Shown one piece after another: positions 3,801 to 51,054 of a DNA stretch of 64,000 nt. Each line of letters opens with the position of its first letter. Positions within the stretch are counted from its first letter, which is position 1. The stretch is from an uncultured Syntrophus sp. (GTDB lineage: Bacteria; Desulfobacterota; Syntrophia; Syntrophales; UBA8958): the NCBI GenBank assembly GCA_964571695.1, contig CAZNDG010000003.1, positions 15,261 to 79,260 on the forward strand, in the 5' to 3' direction. A program made the position numbers and the translations under genes. Below the pieces are notes generated by a model. It ran no database searches. It was not told the origin of the DNA and worked only from the letters and a program-made list of their open reading frames with translations.

Positions 3801-6800
3801 CTTCATCCCGCCGCGGCTCAGCATCCAAACCTTGCCGGCGCCGGCCCGATAGGCCAAATAGGAACCGTCGGGCCGGTAGATCCAGGAGTCGCGGTACCGG
3901 CCGCCCAGAGCGTCGTCGTAAGCCTCGATCCGTTCCTGCTGGAACCCCTCGGGAAGGCTGCCGCCGTCCCGGACGAAATAGTCGTATTCATATTGACTTT
4001 TCCAGAAGCTGTCCTGGCCGGGGATGGTGGCGACCGTCTGCATCCGGGTATAGACGCCGTGATGGATCCGTCCTTTTACCGATTGATAGATGCCGCTTGT
4101 GTCCGTCAGGGTGTATTGATCTGTCTCGCCGGAGAAGCTGCTGCTGAAGTACATGGGGGTCCGTGTGTAGGAGCCGATACCCGTGGCCTGCCAGGCCGTA
4201 TCACCGGCGGCGGCATTGGCGACGGCGCCGGAAAGTTCGTAGCGGGCCAGATTGGTCAGGGCAGAGCCGCTGAATATCCCGCTCGTCCCCGGATTGGTCT
4301 GGCCCAGGCCCGCCAACTGCCCTTTCCATAAGCCCTCCTCGGTGAGGTCCGTTGTATTGTGGAACTTGCCTCCCAGGGAAAGGTCCGCGGTTGCCGTGGC
4401 GGTGGCATCGTAGGTTCCACCAAAGGCGGCATTCCAGATCCCCCAGTTGTTCTGGTCGTTTATCCTCATCGCATAGCCGTCCACGACGACGTCCTTGACC
4501 GTTTTGCCGAGGAAGAGCCCGCTGCTCCGGGCAGCCTGAAAATCGTTGACGACGAGGGATGTCAACAGGTTTGCCGGCGACACCGTCGTTGCCTGCTCTT
4601 CCCGGCCGCCGAGCAGGGACAGGTTATCCTGCCACAGGTTGGCGTTTCCGCCGTAGTAGGCGCCGGAGATGACTCCCCCCGTCATGCCTTCCAGATAACC
4701 GGCCTTGTTGCCGGCGGTGACATAAAGGATCAGCGCCTGACTCGCAAGGGTGTTGTCCTGCCATCCTCCGGTCAGATAGCCGCGGAAAGCCCCTCCGTCC
4801 ACGGCTGTTCCGGCAATGTTGCCGCCGCCGGTTCCATAACGGAGCAGGGAGGGCTGATTGCCGGCGTTTTGGACATAACTGCCCATCATCGTAAGGGATG
4901 CCTGGGAGTTCCACTCGGTGGAAGCACTGCCGAGAAGCCCGGCAAGAGTGCCTCCGGTGATGAAAGAGGCGCCGTCGAAGTGTTGCATGGATCCCGACAT
5001 GATGCCCTTCATGGTCAGGGGCGCCAGATCGTAGGTGCCTACCCCGACACTGTCGTACGATGCGGCGACCAGAGGTTGATTGCCCGTGGGGTAACTCCCG
5101 GCGTATCTCAACGTCATGGTCCCCAGGTAGTCGGCGTCGAGATACCGGAATCCCGACGGCACGGCTTCCTGAATCGTCACATGCCCCTGGCCGTCGTCCG
5201 TCCCGGTGAGGTCGCCCATGACGACGAAGACCCGACCGTTGACCGGGGTGAGGTTGTAGGCGCCGTACATTGCCGTCCAGGTGGCGGGCATCCCGCCGCT
5301 GTAATAACCGCCGCCGGCGGGATGATAACCCCACATCCCGAGGATGCCGCCGTCGGTGCGCCGGTAACCCCGGACCTGGCCGGTTACGGTTTCGGTGGCG
5401 AGACCGCCGGCGGGATCGACATCGCGGAAATAGGGAAGGGAGATGTCCGCAAAGGTCTGGAACGACCCGGAGGCGGTATATGGCGTCCAGATGCGGGTTA
5501 CCGTACCGTCGCCGTTGAGGACGCCTTCGTTGAAGGTGCCGGTGAGGCTGCCCGTGAGGTAGCCAAGCTTCCCCTCCTTGTTTGCCAGGCCGTTGTACAG
5601 ACCCCGCCACGATCCCACGATTACCGCCAGATCGGCATTCGAGACCGCGCCGTCGCTCATCGTTCCGCTTAGCGGGGTTACGGTTGTGGCAAGCGATGGA
5701 CCGGTGGCGGCGAGACTAAGGTTTCCCGTACCGGTGGATTCGTTGATCTTTCCCGAGAGAGTGCCGTTTAGATCACCGATGGCGACACTGTTCGTGAAAG
5801 AAGTGCCGCTGCTGATGGACCACTTGTACGATTGCGTGGCCGAGGCATTGCCCACCGAGTCAACGCCCACGTAATCCAGGACATTGATGCCGTCGGGAAG
5901 GCCGCTCAGGGAGATGCTGGGAGAACTGCTGCTGTTCCAGGTCCCGCCGTTGATCCGGTAGGTGTAGGTTGCCGGTTCGTTGGCGGAAAAACCGAAGGTG
6001 GCGGTATTGGTGTCCGCGGTTCCCGGAGGAAATGAAGTCAGCATGACCTGGGGGGGGGTGGTGTCCCTTTGAATGATAGGCTCCACGATGATCGGTTGCG
6101 TCGGGTTGACCGGCGGCGAAACGACCGGGGTGACCGGTGGCGCGACCGGTTCCGTGAACTGCGTCCCGGAGGCCGGTGGGGCGGGAGGCGGCAACTCCGT
6201 GGACGTGGCGGTTCCTGCCGTTTGCTGCGGGGTTGTGGTACCGGTCGTCGTCCCGGTTCCGGTTGTGTCGCCCGTAGCGGTTCCTGTTGACGTTCCTGCT
6301 CCCGTACCGCCGGTGGTTCCGGCGGGTTGTTGCGTCTCGCTGCCTTTGGTTTCCTGCGGTTTTGTTTCCTCCGTCTTGGTCTGTTGCGGAGGCTTTTCAT
6401 CCTTAGGTTTTTCGGTTTTCGCCTCTTCCTTTTTCTCTTCTTTCTTCTCCTCCTGCTTGCCCTGGTCGCCTTCCGGTTTCTGGGCGCCCTCAGGTGATTT
6501 CGCCTCCTCCTTCTTTTCCTGTTTTTCCTCCTTGCCTTTTTCCGTGGGGGTGGTGTCTTTGGCGTGTTTGTCGATCTCCACCGATGTCGCCGGCCGTAGC
6601 GTCGGAGAGCGGTCGGGGGCCGTCACCACCATGGCCTGTCCGGCATTGATGGTGACGACCTGGGTGGGCATCTTGACGTTGTAGCCATAGCCGCTGCCCC
6701 GCTGGAAGGCGAAGCCGCTCTGGCCGTTCTGGAAGTAGGCGAAGAACATGGTGCCGCGGACACCGCAGATGGCGGTGGGGGTATGGATTTCGAAGGTACC

Positions 6801-7157
6801 TTTTTTCTGGAGCTTGTCAACCACCGCCTGGGTTTTGCCCCGGAACAGATTGAAATAACTTTTCCTTCCCTCTTCCGGCTGATACTGGGAAACCCGCAGA
6901 CGGGTGTTTTCCGCCAGGCGGAGGATATTGCCGTCCAGGAATTTTATTTCCGCCTTGGACTTGCTCTTCGATCTCAGGATGTCGCCTACGCTGACCTGGT
7001 CGCCCACGCGGACATCCCGGGTCTGGCCGCCGGCGGTCAAATCGACCCTGCCTTCCAGGGCGGTTATCGTCCCCACCGGCGCCGCCTGAACTGCCGCCAA
7101 TGGCAGCAAGACGAAGGCAAATATTAGCAATAACGCCAAGTTGAGTTTTCTATTCAT
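858..7157 (-). CDS. Giant secreted protein GP1 (2099 aa): signal peptide, FecR domain, K/E-rich and T/G/P-rich linkers, Ig-like domain, G/Y/W-rich super-repeats, conserved C-terminal domain
   Basis: ORF-track frame. N-terminus MNRKLNLALLLIFAFVLLPLAAVQA/APVG is an SPase I-type signal. A FecR-like block follows (GRVDLTAGGQ..VGDQVSVGDILRSKSKSKAEIKFLDGNILRLAENTRL..IHTPTAICGVRGTMF). Then come KEEKQEKKEEAK.. and TGTGTTTGTTT.. low-complexity stretches and a DTTPPQV..TYTYRINGG..SYKWSI Ig-like segment. Repeats carry the motifs WGIW, DGGA[FY].GYL and G.AG[YF]L. Both termini are paralogous to the protein at 15750..25736. Confidence 0.85.
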   Translation of the reverse strand: MNRKLNLALLLIFAFVLLPLAAVQAAPVGTITALEGRVDLTAGGQTRDVRVGDQVSVGDILRSKSKSKAEIKFLDGNILRLAENTRLRVSQYQPEEGRKSYFNLFRGKTQAVVDKLQKKGTFEIHTPTAICGVRGTMFFAYFQNGQSGFAFQRGSGYGYNVKMPTQVVTINAGQAMVVTAPDRSPTLRPATSVEIDKHAKDTTPTEKGKEEKQEKKEEAKSPEGAQKPEGDQGKQEEKKEEKKEEAKTEKPKDEKPPQQTKTEETKPQETKGSETQQPAGTTGGTGAGTSTGTATGDTTGTGTTTGTTTPQQTAGTATSTELPPPAPPASGTQFTEPVAPPVTPVVSPPVNPTQPIIVEPIIQRDTTPPQVMLTSFPPGTADTNTATFGFSANEPATYTYRINGGTWNSSSSPSISLSGLPDGINVLDYVGVDSVGNASATQSYKWSISSGTSFTNSVAIGDLNGTLSGKINESTGTGNLSLAATGPSLATTVTPLSGTMSDGAVSNADLAVIVGSWRGLYNGLANKEGKLGYLTGSLTGTFNEGVLNGDGTVTRIWTPYTASGSFQTFADISLPYFRDVDPAGGLATETVTGQVRGYRRTDGGILGMWGYHPAGGGYYSGGMPATWTAMYGAYNLTPVNGRVFVVMGDLTGTDDGQGHVTIQEAVPSGFRYLDADYLGTMTLRYAGSYPTGNQPLVAASYDSVGVGTYDLAPLTMKGIMSGSMQHFDGASFITGGTLAGLLGSASTEWNSQASLTMMGSYVQNAGNQPSLLRYGTGGGNIAGTAVDGGAFRGYLTGGWQDNTLASQALILYVTAGNKAGYLEGMTGGVISGAYYGGNANLWQDNLSLLGGREEQATTVSPANLLTSLVVNDFQAARSSGLFLGKTVKDVVVDGYAMRINDQNNWGIWNAAFGGTYDATATATADLSLGGKFHNTTDLTEEGLWKGQLAGLGQTNPGTSGIFSGSALTNLARYELSGAVANAAAGDTAWQATGIGSYTRTPMYFSSSFSGETDQYTLTDTSGIYQSVKGRIHHGVYTRMQTVATIPGQDSFWKSQYEYDYFVRDGGSLPEGFQQERIEAYDDALGGRYRDSWIYRPDGSYLAYRAGAGKVWMLSRGGMKKLLPVPNLAGTAPYYDPVSRNLPAGSIYHPAAPLDPSPADVYVRSFAGDDQPWSNDVYSVVRAADFSGLMAGAASLKDTTMDNQADLYFLGQMGNYTGAAVFNARLLSYDAASQKRTTPDGDAYYLNLMGAVATEGGAGSVNNLNGVIYGLYVNPTGTEAGFLRGGIFAGTVSGDLGMWEATGRLYREEPFYRGAALPFTPDKLLNRLSNGNWVNLQGGYMGASVELGSREGYFLGSESTSGVLTGYDAPGWTLNIKGLPDYGIFQLNHEVMNRYRNPDQADAWAMNLSGLGSFGSYTTATEIPVTYPDSGVWFAGINNGLWQNGFISGGISGRFLTLTKAGTITGEMVGSYRPDAAGGTEGTWQAVSGGVWRKETTGSLTFASRIDGTSAVLDHEISGYRDYGNGEFYSFGYNDRDRRDGSRYGWSSYANPSLREAVSTSFNASGPNEENMTYYSQTIKTVWTDAQPSVYSFTQNDITFDNRGAYIEAMTGLAYSPKGEVVGYGMYGFNSRSNLQGIFAGQDDLWAAGRISRTEFLLVDDTSFLGGKPFLFGGILYSSNPLKTDNPFTDSEAPIGGAYVSYLGGAVNQANRVQATLFGLYMDRDRNIGILNSWDDNAQSYDLTGNYYPGAGAWEGSGAITSAFVMTPDGQKISPELTPQNFAANVFVNSRQLVKFSDPGLSPLTWGEAAPEIDLRLGAITGSAAIINPARQNDGLWGIWSAATGGEYDGDPATWAGKAVAWEYSAATEGGSDTALLSARIDNVDPPANSFSGIITGATADWINLRISVMGGEIRGLFDPANPRTWMAFQQGAFMDAATFFARINSMNAADRAAMERATRIPCSEVGRADFAGNGNNMSIQMNGVQFLRFQTEAAPRIWGTNSVTGTFIDTPVLNAAPITLRANTGGNDMTASFNMQRWTAPAGNAGNWGAAVNGGGALNRTDVPGTTLNVKFSGAAAGGYQVTSGTGGTINGVAAGIVK

Positions 7158-7226
7158 GGTGATACCCCCTGCAATACCGGTTAAACAGTCTATCGGACTC
7201 CGTATGTCGTTTTTTCCCTTACCTTG

Positions 7227-46626: not shown

Positions 46627-47469
46627 TCACCAAGCCTTCAGATGCTTGAGGGATGCCACGGCATGGAAGGTGTTTTCCAGATTGGCGATGCCGCCATGTG
46701 TGGTGCGGGAAAACCCTCCGGTCATGTTCTGTGACCACAGGATAATTTCGCGGCAGGTTTCGGGATATACGGGCCAGCCGCCGGTGATGAGGCGGGCCTG
46801 AAGACCCCAGAAGATATGTTCGATGTATCCCGGCAAGGTGCGGGGAACATTGACATAACCGAACAGCATATTTTCGCATCGGGAGATGAAATCGCCGGTC
46901 CGGCGGTCCGCCGGCAAGACCTCCAGCCATTGGAGAATGGACAGGGCCTGGGCAGTTTCTATTAGGGTGCCATATTCCCTGCCGTAGCCACCATCCGGGG
47001 TTTGCAGGTTCAGGACAAAGGCGGAGATTTCTTCCCCGATGGGGCGGGCTATGGGAATATCACGCTCGCAATGCAGATCCACGAGGAGATAGATGTTCTT
47101 GAAGATCGAGGCCTCGCCGGTGGGAACGAGGCGAACATCGTAGGTGTGGAGTTGCCTTTTCAGGTAAGGGGCGTGATCGTAACGGGGCGCCTGACCAAGC
47201 AGCGACAGACCCTTCAGGACAAAATAGGCGATCGGAAGGTTTTCGAAGCCGCCGTCGGCGTATTGAAAGGACTTGAGAAAGCTTGCTGTTTCCCCGTCCT
47301 GGTCTCGTGCTCCCAGCAAGTGAAGGATGCCCAGCGCCCAGTAAGTATCCGAGCTGTTGGGCTCCTCCAGCCGATAGAAACAATAGCCGCCCTCCCGGCA
47401 ACGCCGGTCGCGGACGTAGCGGCTGACCCTTTCCTGACGATTCAGATCCATTTTCATGATCGGTCGCAC
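46627..47469 (-). CDS. Prenyltransferase/squalene-oxidase-repeat (alpha/alpha-toroid) protein
   Basis: PFTB-like GG[FY] motifs recur: REGGYCFY, ADGGFEN, PDGGYGRE, MTGGFSRT. Its start is 7 nt downstream of the enolase remnant. Confidence 0.5.
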   Translation of the reverse strand: MRPIMKMDLNRQERVSRYVRDRRCREGGYCFYRLEEPNSSDTYWALGILHLLGARDQDGETASFLKSFQYADGGFENLPIAYFVLKGLSLLGQAPRYDHAPYLKRQLHTYDVRLVPTGEASIFKNIYLLVDLHCERDIPIARPIGEEISAFVLNLQTPDGGYGREYGTLIETAQALSILQWLEVLPADRRTGDFISRCENMLFGYVNVPRTLPGYIEHIFWGLQARLITGGWPVYPETCREIILWSQNMTGGFSRTTHGGIANLENTFHAVASLKHLKAW

Positions 47470-47475
47470 CGCCGA

Positions 47476-48179
<704 letters not shown>

Positions 48180-48297
48180 TTATTAATAAACGGGAAGCGC
48201 TTTTGGGAAGGAATAAATCATTTATTGTCGGGAAAGGGGTTTTTTGAACTTGTCGCCGAAAGAAGGATGGCGTTGATAATATTTGTCTGGGTGGCAC

Positions 48298-48332
48298 AAA
48301 AAAACTCCTGCCGGGAAATCCGGTAGGAGTTA
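48298..48332 (-). terminator. Rho-independent terminator forming the expression platform of the fluoride riboswitch
   Basis: The minus-strand RNA reads AACUCCUACCGG-AUUUC-CCGGCAGGAGUU followed by UUUUUUU. Its 5' arm reuses the aptamer pseudoknot strand. Confidence 0.8.
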
Positions 48333-48370
48333 TCAGCCTCGGGGGCGTTTCCACGGTGAACCCCATCACC
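48323..48370 (-). promoter_or_regulatory. Fluoride riboswitch aptamer (crcB RNA motif)
   Basis: The minus-strand RNA is GGUGAUGGGGUUCACCGUGGAAACGCCCCCGAGGCUGAUAACUCCUAC. It matches the crcB-motif pattern GGxGAUGGxxUUCxCC..AAAC-GCC(stem)GGC-UGAU-x-(pseudoknot)-CUAC. P1 is GGUG/CACC. Loop GGGGU(U) is complementary to (A)ACUCC. Confidence 0.8.
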
Positions 48371-48673
48371 ATTTGCGCTGCCCATACCACGACGCGACCA
48401 GGGTGTCAAGGGAGTTGTTTTTCCCCCCTCTTCGGGATTGACGGCCACCCTTAGGTTCCTGCCGATTACAAGCGGCGTTTGTATTGACAGGAAGCCAGGT
48501 TTTATAGTATCCGGCAATCATTGACAAGACATGTAAGACGGGTGATGGAGTTCACCTGACAACCGCCGCACCGGCTGATGACTCCTGCCAAGCAAGTCGC
48601 TTCCGGAGGGAGCAGGCAAGGCGGCGAAGGCAAGCCGAGACTCCCCCAGGAGACAAACTGGAGGAGTTTTTTT

Positions 48674-50350
48674 ATGGAAGGGATGAACAAAAACGTCCAA
48701 GCGATCCAGACGACGTCCGGGCAGATCCTGGAGGTCGTGCAAACGGTCTGCGACAACCTGCGGATCGTCTCCCTGCAACGCGCCGCGCATGTCTGTCGCT
48801 CCCTGGTCCGGCAGAATCCCCTCATCGACGTGGCCATTCTCGGCCAATTCAAGGCGGGGAAGAGTTCTTTTCTCAACAGCCTCATCGGCCGGACTCTCCT
48901 GCCCGTGGGCGTTATTCCCGTCACGACCGTCATTACCCGGATCCAGCACGGACCGGTGGAGCGGGCCATGGTCACCCATTTCGACGGCGCCCGGACGGAG
49001 ATCGCCCTGGAAGACCTGGATGCCTACTCCTCGGAGGCAAAAAATCCCGGCAACCAGAAGGACGTCGCCGTCGTCGATATCGAGCTTCCCTCCCTGGAAG
49101 ATTACGCCGGCCTCCGCCTTGTCGATACCCCCGGCCTGGGCAGCGTCTTCAAGTACCACATGGAGACCGCGGAGAACTGGCTGCCGGAGGTGGGGGCGGC
49201 CCTGCTCGCCATCAGCGCCGATCGCCCCCTCTCCGAGCACGACCTGGCTCTGATCCGGGATCTCCAGCAATACACCCCCCGGATCGTCCTGCTCCTGACC
49301 AAGGCGGACCTCCTTCAGGCCGACCAGCAGCGGGAGGTCGTCCAGTTCTTCAAGGACACCTTGCAACGGGAGCTGAAACAGGAATTCCCTATCTTTCTCT
49401 ATTCCAACCGGAACGAAATGGAAAAATACCGGCACCGTCTGGAGATGGAACTCCTCTATAAACTCTCGGCGAACCGGGATGCGGAGTTCGGCCGGATCCT
49501 CCAGTACAAGGCGGTTTCCCTGGCTAAGAGCTGCGAGAGCTATCTGGAGATCGCAAGGAAGGCATCCGAACAGGCCGATACGGATCGGGAGGCCCTGAAG
49601 GAGCAGATCATGGGCGAAAAGGGAAACTACACCCAGATCCACGAAGAATTGATCGTCATGACCCGCGCCCAGTCCATCCACACCCGGACCAACATCGAGA
49701 AGTCTCTGGAACGATTCAAACGGCCTCTCCACGATCGTCTCGTCGCGGCCCTGAAGGAGGAAATGCCCCGGTGGCAGGGGAACCTGTGGCAGCTTACCCG
49801 GCGCTATGAGGAGTGGCTCCATGAGAACCTGACCGTCGAGCTCGACGAGATTTCCGCCAAGGAGCACAAGCACTTCTTCGGAACGATGATGAAGGCCCAT
49901 GCCGCCCTGGACCGCTATCTGGAGTCTTTCCGCGCCCGTCTCGGGGCCAATATCGAAAGGGTCCTGGGCGTCAAGATGGCCCCGGCGGAATGGAATCTGG
50001 AAGTGACGCCCCCCGTCCGCCCGGATATTTCCATCGGCCATGTTTTCCAGTTCAATTTTGATCTGTTGTGGTTTCTTTTTCCCATGTCGATCTTCCGCGG
50101 CCGTTTCGAGCGGCATTTCGTTCGCAAGCTTGCCGATGCGGTATATGTCAACGCCTCCCGCCTCGCCGCCCAGTGGGAAGAGCGGATCAACCGGGCCATC
50201 GAAGAGATGCGGAAGCAGGCGGCGGGATATATCCGGGAGGAAATGGCCACCCTCGACGCCCTGCTCTCCCAGAATCCGGGGCGGACGGAGGATATCCGGC
50301 GCCTGACGGCGGAGCTAAAGGGGGCGGTCCGCCGCCTGGAGGGCGATTGA
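48674..50350 (+). CDS. Bacterial dynamin-like GTPase
   Basis: The ATG at 48674 is preceded by ggaggag. G1 is GQFKAGKSSFLNSL, G3 is VDTPGLGS and G4 is LTKADLL. A long helical stalk follows. The antisense 532-aa ORF was rejected. Confidence 0.8.
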   Translation: MEGMNKNVQAIQTTSGQILEVVQTVCDNLRIVSLQRAAHVCRSLVRQNPLIDVAILGQFKAGKSSFLNSLIGRTLLPVGVIPVTTVITRIQHGPVERAMVTHFDGARTEIALEDLDAYSSEAKNPGNQKDVAVVDIELPSLEDYAGLRLVDTPGLGSVFKYHMETAENWLPEVGAALLAISADRPLSEHDLALIRDLQQYTPRIVLLLTKADLLQADQQREVVQFFKDTLQRELKQEFPIFLYSNRNEMEKYRHRLEMELLYKLSANRDAEFGRILQYKAVSLAKSCESYLEIARKASEQADTDREALKEQIMGEKGNYTQIHEELIVMTRAQSIHTRTNIEKSLERFKRPLHDRLVAALKEEMPRWQGNLWQLTRRYEEWLHENLTVELDEISAKEHKHFFGTMMKAHAALDRYLESFRARLGANIERVLGVKMAPAEWNLEVTPPVRPDISIGHVFQFNFDLLWFLFPMSIFRGRFERHFVRKLADAVYVNASRLAAQWEERINRAIEEMRKQAAGYIREEMATLDALLSQNPGRTEDIRRLTAELKGAVRRLEGD

Positions 50351-50397: not shown

Positions 50398-50560
50398 GCT
50401 TTGCATAACTGTGGAAAAATGGTTCGCAAGCGGCGAATCAAATGTTTTTCGCCGTTGCGTGATTGAACTTAACGCTTGGTAATGAATAAGGATTATACGT
50501 TACCCATTCAGAGGCGAAAAAGATTTCTGAGCCGCGGCGAAGCCATTTTTCAAAGGTCTC
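50398..50560 (+). mobile_element. MITE-like repeat, copy C (163 bp) with a perfect 10-bp target-site duplication
   Basis: It is flanked by gatgacaaga at 50388-50397 and again at 50561-50570. It lies 48 bp upstream of the HIT gene start. Confidence 0.8.
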
Positions 50561-50607: not shown

Positions 50608-51054
50608 ATGAGGATAATTATGAATGAAAACAACTGTGTCTTTTGTGAGATTGTTGCCGGACGGGCGCCGGCCCATATCGTGGCCGAGGATGAACTGTCC
50701 CTGTGCATCCTCGATATCCACCCCTATACCGCGGGCCACTGCCTCGTCATCTCCAAACGCCATGTCCCCTGGTGGCATGAACTGACCGACGGGGAGAACT
50801 CCAGCCTCTTCAAGCTCGCCGGGACGGTGGCCAACCGGATGATGAAGAAGCTGGAACCGGATTTTGTTTTCCTGTACGCCCGGGGGAGGCGGATTCCCCA
50901 TACCCACCTGTTTCTCATTCCCACCTACAGCGGCGATGTCCTGGATCGCTTCTTCAACGCCCTGGAGAATTTTCAGGAGTCTCCGGCAACCCTGGCGGGG
51001 CTCAGGGAGCCGGTGGCGATGCAGGCGGCGGCGGACCTGCTTCGGGAAGATTAG
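50608..51054 (+). CDS. HIT-family (histidine triad) protein
   Basis: The protein contains CVFCEIVAGRAP, GHCLVISKRH, and RIPHTHLFLIP (a histidine-triad variant). Confidence 0.85.
   Translation: MRIIMNENNCVFCEIVAGRAPAHIVAEDELSLCILDIHPYTAGHCLVISKRHVPWWHELTDGENSSLFKLAGTVANRMMKKLEPDFVFLYARGRRIPHTHLFLIPTYSGDVLDRFFNALENFQESPATLAGLREPVAMQAAADLLRED

Follow-up and report, generated by a model that had tools for sequence, protein, structure and literature searches.

Weinberg et al. (PMC2864571) described terminators that overlap the crcB motif, and for this reason ligand binding was expected to raise expression. In the archetypal transcriptional ON switch, that of crcB in Bacillus cereus (PMC8752731), the 3' strand of the aptamer pseudoknot also serves as part of the terminator's 5' arm, and fluoride prevents termination. 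Enolase is a known cargo of fluoride riboswitches (PMC11139923), and in the enolase operon of Enterobacter cloacae FRM (PMC5533749) a second, riboswitch-linked enolase paralogue lies behind the aptamer. The stretch analysed here, referred to as the window, comprises 64,000 nucleotides from an uncultured Syntrophus sp. and carries on its minus strand an RNA that is a new instance of this well-known class, with a textbook expression platform and a known type of cargo. Judged from its sequence, folding and conservation, it is very probably functional, as a fluoride ON switch that acts through transcription termination. Its recognition is a routine gain for annotation, as the RNA class is overlooked by ORF-based pipelines. 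The enolase gene behind it is dead, and the locus therefore provides a clean natural case of a riboswitch that has outlived its first cargo.

A search of the whole window against Rfam 15 (cmscan) at gathering thresholds returned two matches in total, both to the fluoride riboswitch family RF01734. The match on the minus strand, at 48379-48317, scores 50.5 bits over model positions 1-64 of 64 (gathering score 34; E = 4.9e-11), and its E-value in a search of the whole genome is 6.2e-13. The second match lies at 48532-48594 on the plus strand; the 3.4-Mb genome contains no further fluoride aptamer. The first-pass annotation had recognized the minus-strand RNA as a crcB motif by reading its letters, and had made this assignment conditional on a covariance-model score above the gathering threshold; the score is 16 bits over it. 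The RNA sequence given there agrees with our own reading, and the span of 48298-48370 runs exactly from the first base of helix P1 to the last U of the terminator.

Helix P1 of the minus-strand aptamer is formed by GGUG (48370-48367) and CACC (48358-48355), and it closes the loop AUGGGGUU, which fits the conserved loop GAUGGnGUUC. The second helix, GCC (48346-48344) with GGC (48338-48336), precedes CUGAU and has just three pairs where the consensus has four, the fourth being variable. One consensus C position is occupied by A. The pseudoknot proposed earlier between GGGGU and ACUCC could be located at 48364-48360 and 48330-48326; it contains one G-U pair at an A-U position of the consensus, a substitution compatible with pairing. 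The leader lies upstream of an enolase paralogue, a fluoride-linked gene class, and this paralogue is intact in the related genome G002 and decayed here.

Immediately overlapping the aptamer is an intrinsic terminator (48298-48331, minus strand) whose 5' arm holds the 3' strand of the pseudoknot. The 5' arm AACUCCUACCGG (48331-48320), the loop AUUUC, the 3' arm CCGGCAGGAGUU (48314-48303) and seven U residues (48304-48298) together give a hairpin of 11 pairs with one A/C mismatch and a 5-nt loop, with a free energy of -16.2 kcal/mol when folded alone. The hairpin is present in the minimum free energy structure of the 96-nt leader. All five bases of the 3' tail of the pseudoknot lie inside the 5' arm of the terminator, and when the pseudoknot strands were barred from pairing in a constrained in silico fold the terminator hairpin vanished. 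It is conserved in the orthologous leaders of G002, G001 and G006, where all changes preserve the structure: they fall in the loop sequence or on the unpaired mismatch base, or convert one U-A pair to U-G. A simple terminator scan did not list the hairpin because of its internal mismatch. The constrained folding and the conservation in three orthologous leaders thus bear out the competition between pseudoknot and terminator, and the resulting ON design, that had been suggested from the sequence of this one locus.

A putative promoter precedes the aptamer at 48381-48409 (minus strand), with a -35 element TTGACA (48409-48404), a 17-nt spacer and an extended -10 element TGGTATGGG (48389-48381). 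Across four aligned orthologous leaders of the genus no change is seen in the TTGAC and TGnTA blocks, the spacer varies, and aptamer and terminator are likewise conserved in all four. A scan of 47900-49000 with a strict sigma-70 consensus listed no promoter, because the final base of the -10 element is G; the -10 element is weak.

Transcription would thus start at the conserved promoter near 48409-48381, and the aptamer (48379-48317) would be made first. Binding of fluoride, in a Mg-F cluster, would let GGGGU of the loop dock onto ACUCC, and this docking would sequester the first half of the terminator so that RNA polymerase reads through. When fluoride is absent, ACUCC would enter the 11-pair terminator (48331-48298) and transcription would halt at the seven U residues. 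The read-through transcript would then contain the inactivated enolase paralogue followed by an intact gene for a 280-aa protein, described below, which would be the real output of the switch at present.

The first-pass annotation had placed the start of the enolase gene at 48149, and an ATG is indeed found there, 149 nt past the U-run. What follows, however, is an enolase pseudogene (47476-48149, minus strand) made up of a 95-aa ORF (48149-47862) and a 129-aa ORF (47865-47476), as seen from Pfam matches, three-frame reading and alignment to G002. The first ORF covers positions 1-82 of 131 of Enolase_N and the second covers positions 172-288 of 296 of Enolase_C; nowhere does a single frame of about 425 codons with both domains (PF03952 and PF00113) run through the gene. 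In the three-frame reading the frame changes near codon 88, and the sequence DGTPNKGN is joined directly to RIQIVGDD. Comparison with the intact 424-codon gene of G002, which occupies the same place behind the same leader, identifies a 2-nt GC insertion at 47887-47886 and a deletion of 603 nt (201 codons) with its junction at about 47840-47835. In the G002 protein the deleted block contains the motifs QEFM, GDEGGF, ALDPAAS and SIEDG, which we take to carry the catalytic Glu residues of enolase and two of its three metal ligands. The remnant, as aligned, does not possess the catalytic Glu together with three Mg ligands. Its retained parts show a dN/dS of 0.06-0.09 against G002, which indicates that the inactivation is recent.

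A metagenome contig (ENA ERZ926524, here L109) represents a second strain, which shows 19 mismatches in 4 kb (99.5% identity). The contig carries the same 603-nt deletion and is without the 2-nt insertion, so that the N-terminal 103 residues are joined in frame to the C-terminal 120 in a 223-aa ORF (L109:2391-3062). Both substitutions between the two strains inside the enolase remnant are non-synonymous. As L109 was independently assembled, the deletion is real and shared, and the 2-nt frameshift is either peculiar to this strain or, less probably, an error. The two strains appear to have caught the decay in its order, deletion first and frameshift second. An intact housekeeping enolase is present on another contig of this genome, and the riboswitch-linked paralogue is approximately 60% identical to it. 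Only the last ~25 nt of the paralogue are left before the next gene in G001 and none of it is left in G006; together with the remnant in the window genome this means that the paralogue was lost more than once in the genus. The enolase gene named earlier as the cargo is thus a frameshifted, internally deleted remnant. Since the gene is dead, the notion of more enolase under fluoride no longer applies in this genome.

The only intact cargo of the minus-strand switch is a gene at 46627-47469 (minus strand) which begins 6 nt past the enolase remnant and encodes a prenyltransferase-beta-like alpha/alpha toroid protein of 280 aa (276 aa from Met5). No convincing terminator is seen between the remnant and this gene, and we infer that it is co-transcribed with the switch. 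The protein matches PF00432 at 39.4 bits. Its AlphaFold model, for which the alignment came from a search for homologous proteins because the related loci contained just one toroid orthologue, has a pLDDT of 93 and shows an alpha/alpha toroid; the best Foldseek matches of the model are the beta subunits of RabGGTase, GGTase-III and FTase (TM ~0.77, 17-20% identity). A dN/dS of ~0.1 against its orthologues indicates purifying selection. The family comprises 42 clusters, nearly all from Syntrophales, whose names say only hypothetical or repeat-containing. In G001 and G006 the toroid gene lies directly behind the fluoride aptamer. Among 17 further Syntrophales loci chosen by toroid homology, 15 contain at least one RF01734 match, and the exceptions are cut by contig ends or decayed.

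The toroid protein shares its alpha/alpha toroid fold and PF00432 with the beta subunits of protein prenyltransferases. However, the stretch LPDVCYSWW of GGTase-II beta, which holds the Asp-x-Cys zinc ligands, aligns to LPGYIEHIFW in the toroid protein, in a profile alignment that is fragmentary, and the protein is therefore only provisionally regarded as being without these ligands. In further contrast to the prenyltransferases, no gene for an alpha subunit is found near the toroid gene.

The plus-strand aptamer (48532-48594; RF01734, 57.2 bits, E = 3.2e-13) is divergent from the first, the two standing back-to-back at a distance of 153 nt; it is absent from the first-pass annotation. It is followed by a putative relay-type expression platform (48595-48673, plus strand) with a terminator at 48637-48673, as deduced from folds. 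The terminator hairpin GAGACUCCCCCAGG...CUGGAGGAGU is followed by seven U residues and then by AUG at 48674, and the Shine-Dalgarno sequence GGAGGAG (48660-48666) lies within its 3' arm. Most relatives have two hairpins in this leader, each with a 5' arm that starts with ACUCCUG. Folding of a transcript that stops short of the last arm, with the pseudoknot strand blocked, brings the 3' arm of the first hairpin, GGAGGGAG, into pairing with the terminator's 5' arm; an antiterminator pairing of this type is shared by the window and some ten relatives. The switch could thus work as a relay in which the pseudoknot acts on an anti-antiterminator, this on an antiterminator and this in turn on the terminator. 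At equilibrium the terminator still forms with the aptamer locked. Since the relay pairing is obtained only in transcripts cut before the 3' arm, the relay as modelled would be a kinetic one.

The gene controlled by this second switch encodes a dynamin-like GTPase of 558 aa (48674-50350, plus strand; PF00350 Dynamin_N, E = 1.5e-22), in the translation of which the G1, G3 and G4 motifs read GQFKAGKS, DTPG and TKAD. The solved structures nearest to it are those of Campylobacter DLP, IniA and Nostoc BDLP. RF01734 is present directly upstream in 16 of 17 loci that were fetched purely by homology to the GTPase. The one locus without an upstream match at the gathering threshold belongs to Syntrophus sp. 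GL140_4 (L045), where a cobalamin riboswitch lies downstream at 7075-7210. Further along the plus strand follows a gene for a HIT-family hydrolase (50608-51054; PF01230), a recurrent member of the island which adjoins fluoride-riboswitch genes in G001, G002, G006, L092 and L107. Between the GTPase and HIT genes a MITE-like element of 163 bp (50398-50560, plus strand) has been inserted, as seen in an alignment of three copies, with a perfect 10-bp target duplication, GATGACAAGA. The element gives 73 BLAST hits in the genome, several of them at contig ends, and contains a terminator-like hairpin (50420-50440); the insertion may uncouple the HIT gene from the plus-strand switch.

The gene order of this locus is a reduced form of one that is found elsewhere in Syntrophales. 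In the usual layout one unit consists of an aptamer, the GTPase and the enolase, and the other consists of an aptamer, one further gene, an AAA/STAND NTPase, DUF6062, the toroid and sometimes HIT. Judged from this synteny, the island is recurrent across Syntrophales and is a multi-riboswitch one. The window genome retains two divergent units reduced to four genes, of which one is dead and among which the toroid gene is the conspicuous partner, and the MutS-like, AAA and DUF6062 genes of the island are absent from this genome (G000). Intact riboswitch-linked enolases are present in G002 and in many other Syntrophales. Further cargos within the order are Na+/H+ exchangers, a membrane subunit of the NADH-dehydrogenase/hydrogenlyase type, MutS-domain-V proteins and, rarely, CrcB, and these classes agree with the published ones (PMC11139923, PMC2864571). 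In G002 two tandem MutS-domain-V proteins of 507 and 562 aa lie behind a fluoride aptamer of their own (L034:3161-6345); they also match weakly the model of the KamC reactivase ATPase, and the pair probably corresponds to the 'mutS' association noted in 2010 (PMC2864571).

The island is eroding in the genus, where 5 of the 12 genomes have no aptamer, and relaxed selection on the minus-strand switch is for this reason conceivable. Two partial islands may be mentioned separately. G005 is without an aptamer, and what it has of the MutS-like and toroid genes is partial (L108, 2146-3392), and in G010 the aptamer is followed by a GTPase gene cut down to its start and its last 62 codons (L039, about 5731-6166).

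CrcB (PF02537) was found in 3 of the 61 genomes of the order, the fluoride aptamer in 32 of 61, and the window genome contains no match to PF02537. A CLC protein was considered as the fluoride exporter and rejected. The sole CLC homologue of the genome (contig C12, 20634-21626; L041:1207-2679) has the anion-site motifs GYGTE and GQVGP; the latter contains no external gating Glu, and the Ser position of helix D is occupied by Tyr. CLC-F proteins retain the gating Glu (PMC4113899); by eye, the homologue does not agree with the definition of CLC-F given there and seems to fit neither the canonical CLC exchangers nor CLC-F.

It seems plausible, as a tentative proposal which we hold at somewhat less than an even chance, that the fluoride riboswitches of Syntrophales govern a module that is independent of export. 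Its core would be the GTPase and the zinc-less toroid protein, with enolase, HIT, AAA/DUF6062 and MutS-like proteins as optional parts, and the switch would have survived the death of the enolase because the toroid protein, as the working partner of the GTPase, is still selected. The fluoride switches would place the uncharacterised toroid protein and the dynamin-like GTPase in the fluoride response of an order that is almost devoid of CrcB. In the literature searched, which lay outside the gene lists of the founding paper, nothing was found that joins 'fluoride riboswitch' with 'dynamin', and the titles and abstracts of papers that contain both 'fluoride riboswitch' and 'GTPase' do not treat a link between them.

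The erosion of the island allows another reading, in which the minus-strand switch is a relic that has kept the look of an aptamer in a cell that no longer needs it, its cargo being dead and the island on its way to loss. The enolase pseudogene, the other island genes missing from G000, the several sister genomes with no aptamer or with only broken island genes, and the MITE inserted within the twin operon would all suit it. However, the aptamer scores 16 bits over its threshold, and neither the helices nor the pseudoknot are damaged. Both fluoride switches are identical in the second strain, and promoter, aptamer, terminator and leader are unchanged between the two strains while 19 other differences have accumulated in 4 kb. 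The toroid gene behind the switch has remained intact under purifying selection, and G001 and G006 dropped the enolase yet kept the switch for the toroid gene. We therefore consider a relic unlikely, and retain the reading of a functional switch whose remaining output is the toroid gene.

An additional, translational layer of control is possible beyond the terminator. The 3' arm of the terminator contains GGAG, which is followed by the seven U residues and then by GUG, the GGAG being 7 nt before the GUG; masking of this GGAG by the hairpin could affect translation as well. The GUG at 48297 would start a possible upstream ORF of 47 codons in the 149-nt leader (48154-48297, minus strand), the stop of which ends 4 nt before the enolase ATG. 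Equivalent ORFs connect the terminator to the first gene in G002 (44 codons), G001 (24 codons) and G006 (13 codons). Shuffling gives weak statistics for them, with probabilities of 0.09 and 0.065 in the two long leaders and 0.53 and 0.81 in the others, so that a real leader ORF is only suggested. GGAG and a U-run followed at once by AUG or GUG are present in four of four orthologous leaders; the leader peptides are not conserved.

Control could on these grounds be mainly translational, with the hairpin hiding the GGAG in front of the start codon that follows the U-run and the leader ORF coupling ribosomes to the first real gene. The arrangement GGAG-U7-[A/G]UG with an ORF reaching the first gene in all four orthologous leaders speaks for it, and so do the GTPase leaders, in which the same arrangement is the true start of the gene. 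Nevertheless, with its G+C-rich stem, its seven U residues and its -16.2 kcal/mol the hairpin is a textbook case of an intrinsic terminator, the open frames of the two long leaders could be due to chance at the probabilities given above, the encoded peptides differ between leaders, and the enolase remnant keeps a GGAG of its own 9 nt before its ATG. Mainly translational control is thus unlikely as well, slightly more so than a relic, and termination of transcription stays the preferred mode of action of the minus-strand switch.

It is hardly credible that the enolase is truly intact and controlled by the switch, its lesions being assembly errors: the genome is a draft of 116 contigs, the retained parts bear the mark of strong past purifying selection and the 2-nt insertion is missing in L109, but the 603-nt deletion recurs in L109, whose 19 differences show that it is not the same assembly, the product without the frameshift would still be 223 aa with most of the barrel gone, and the enolase is deleted at the same position in G001 and G006 as well.

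In comparison to the B. cereus crcB switch, the minus-strand switch belongs to the same aptamer class, shares the 3' strand of its pseudoknot with the 5' arm of its terminator in the same manner and would follow the same logic. It differs in that its cargo is not a fluoride channel, in a genome without CrcB, and in that the 3' arm of its terminator also bears a Shine-Dalgarno sequence with a start codon at once after the hairpin. The likeness to the enolase operon of E. cloacae FRM lies in the second enolase paralogue behind the aptamer. Here, however, this paralogue is short of 201 codons and in this strain also of its reading frame, and the switch can therefore no longer raise enolase activity.
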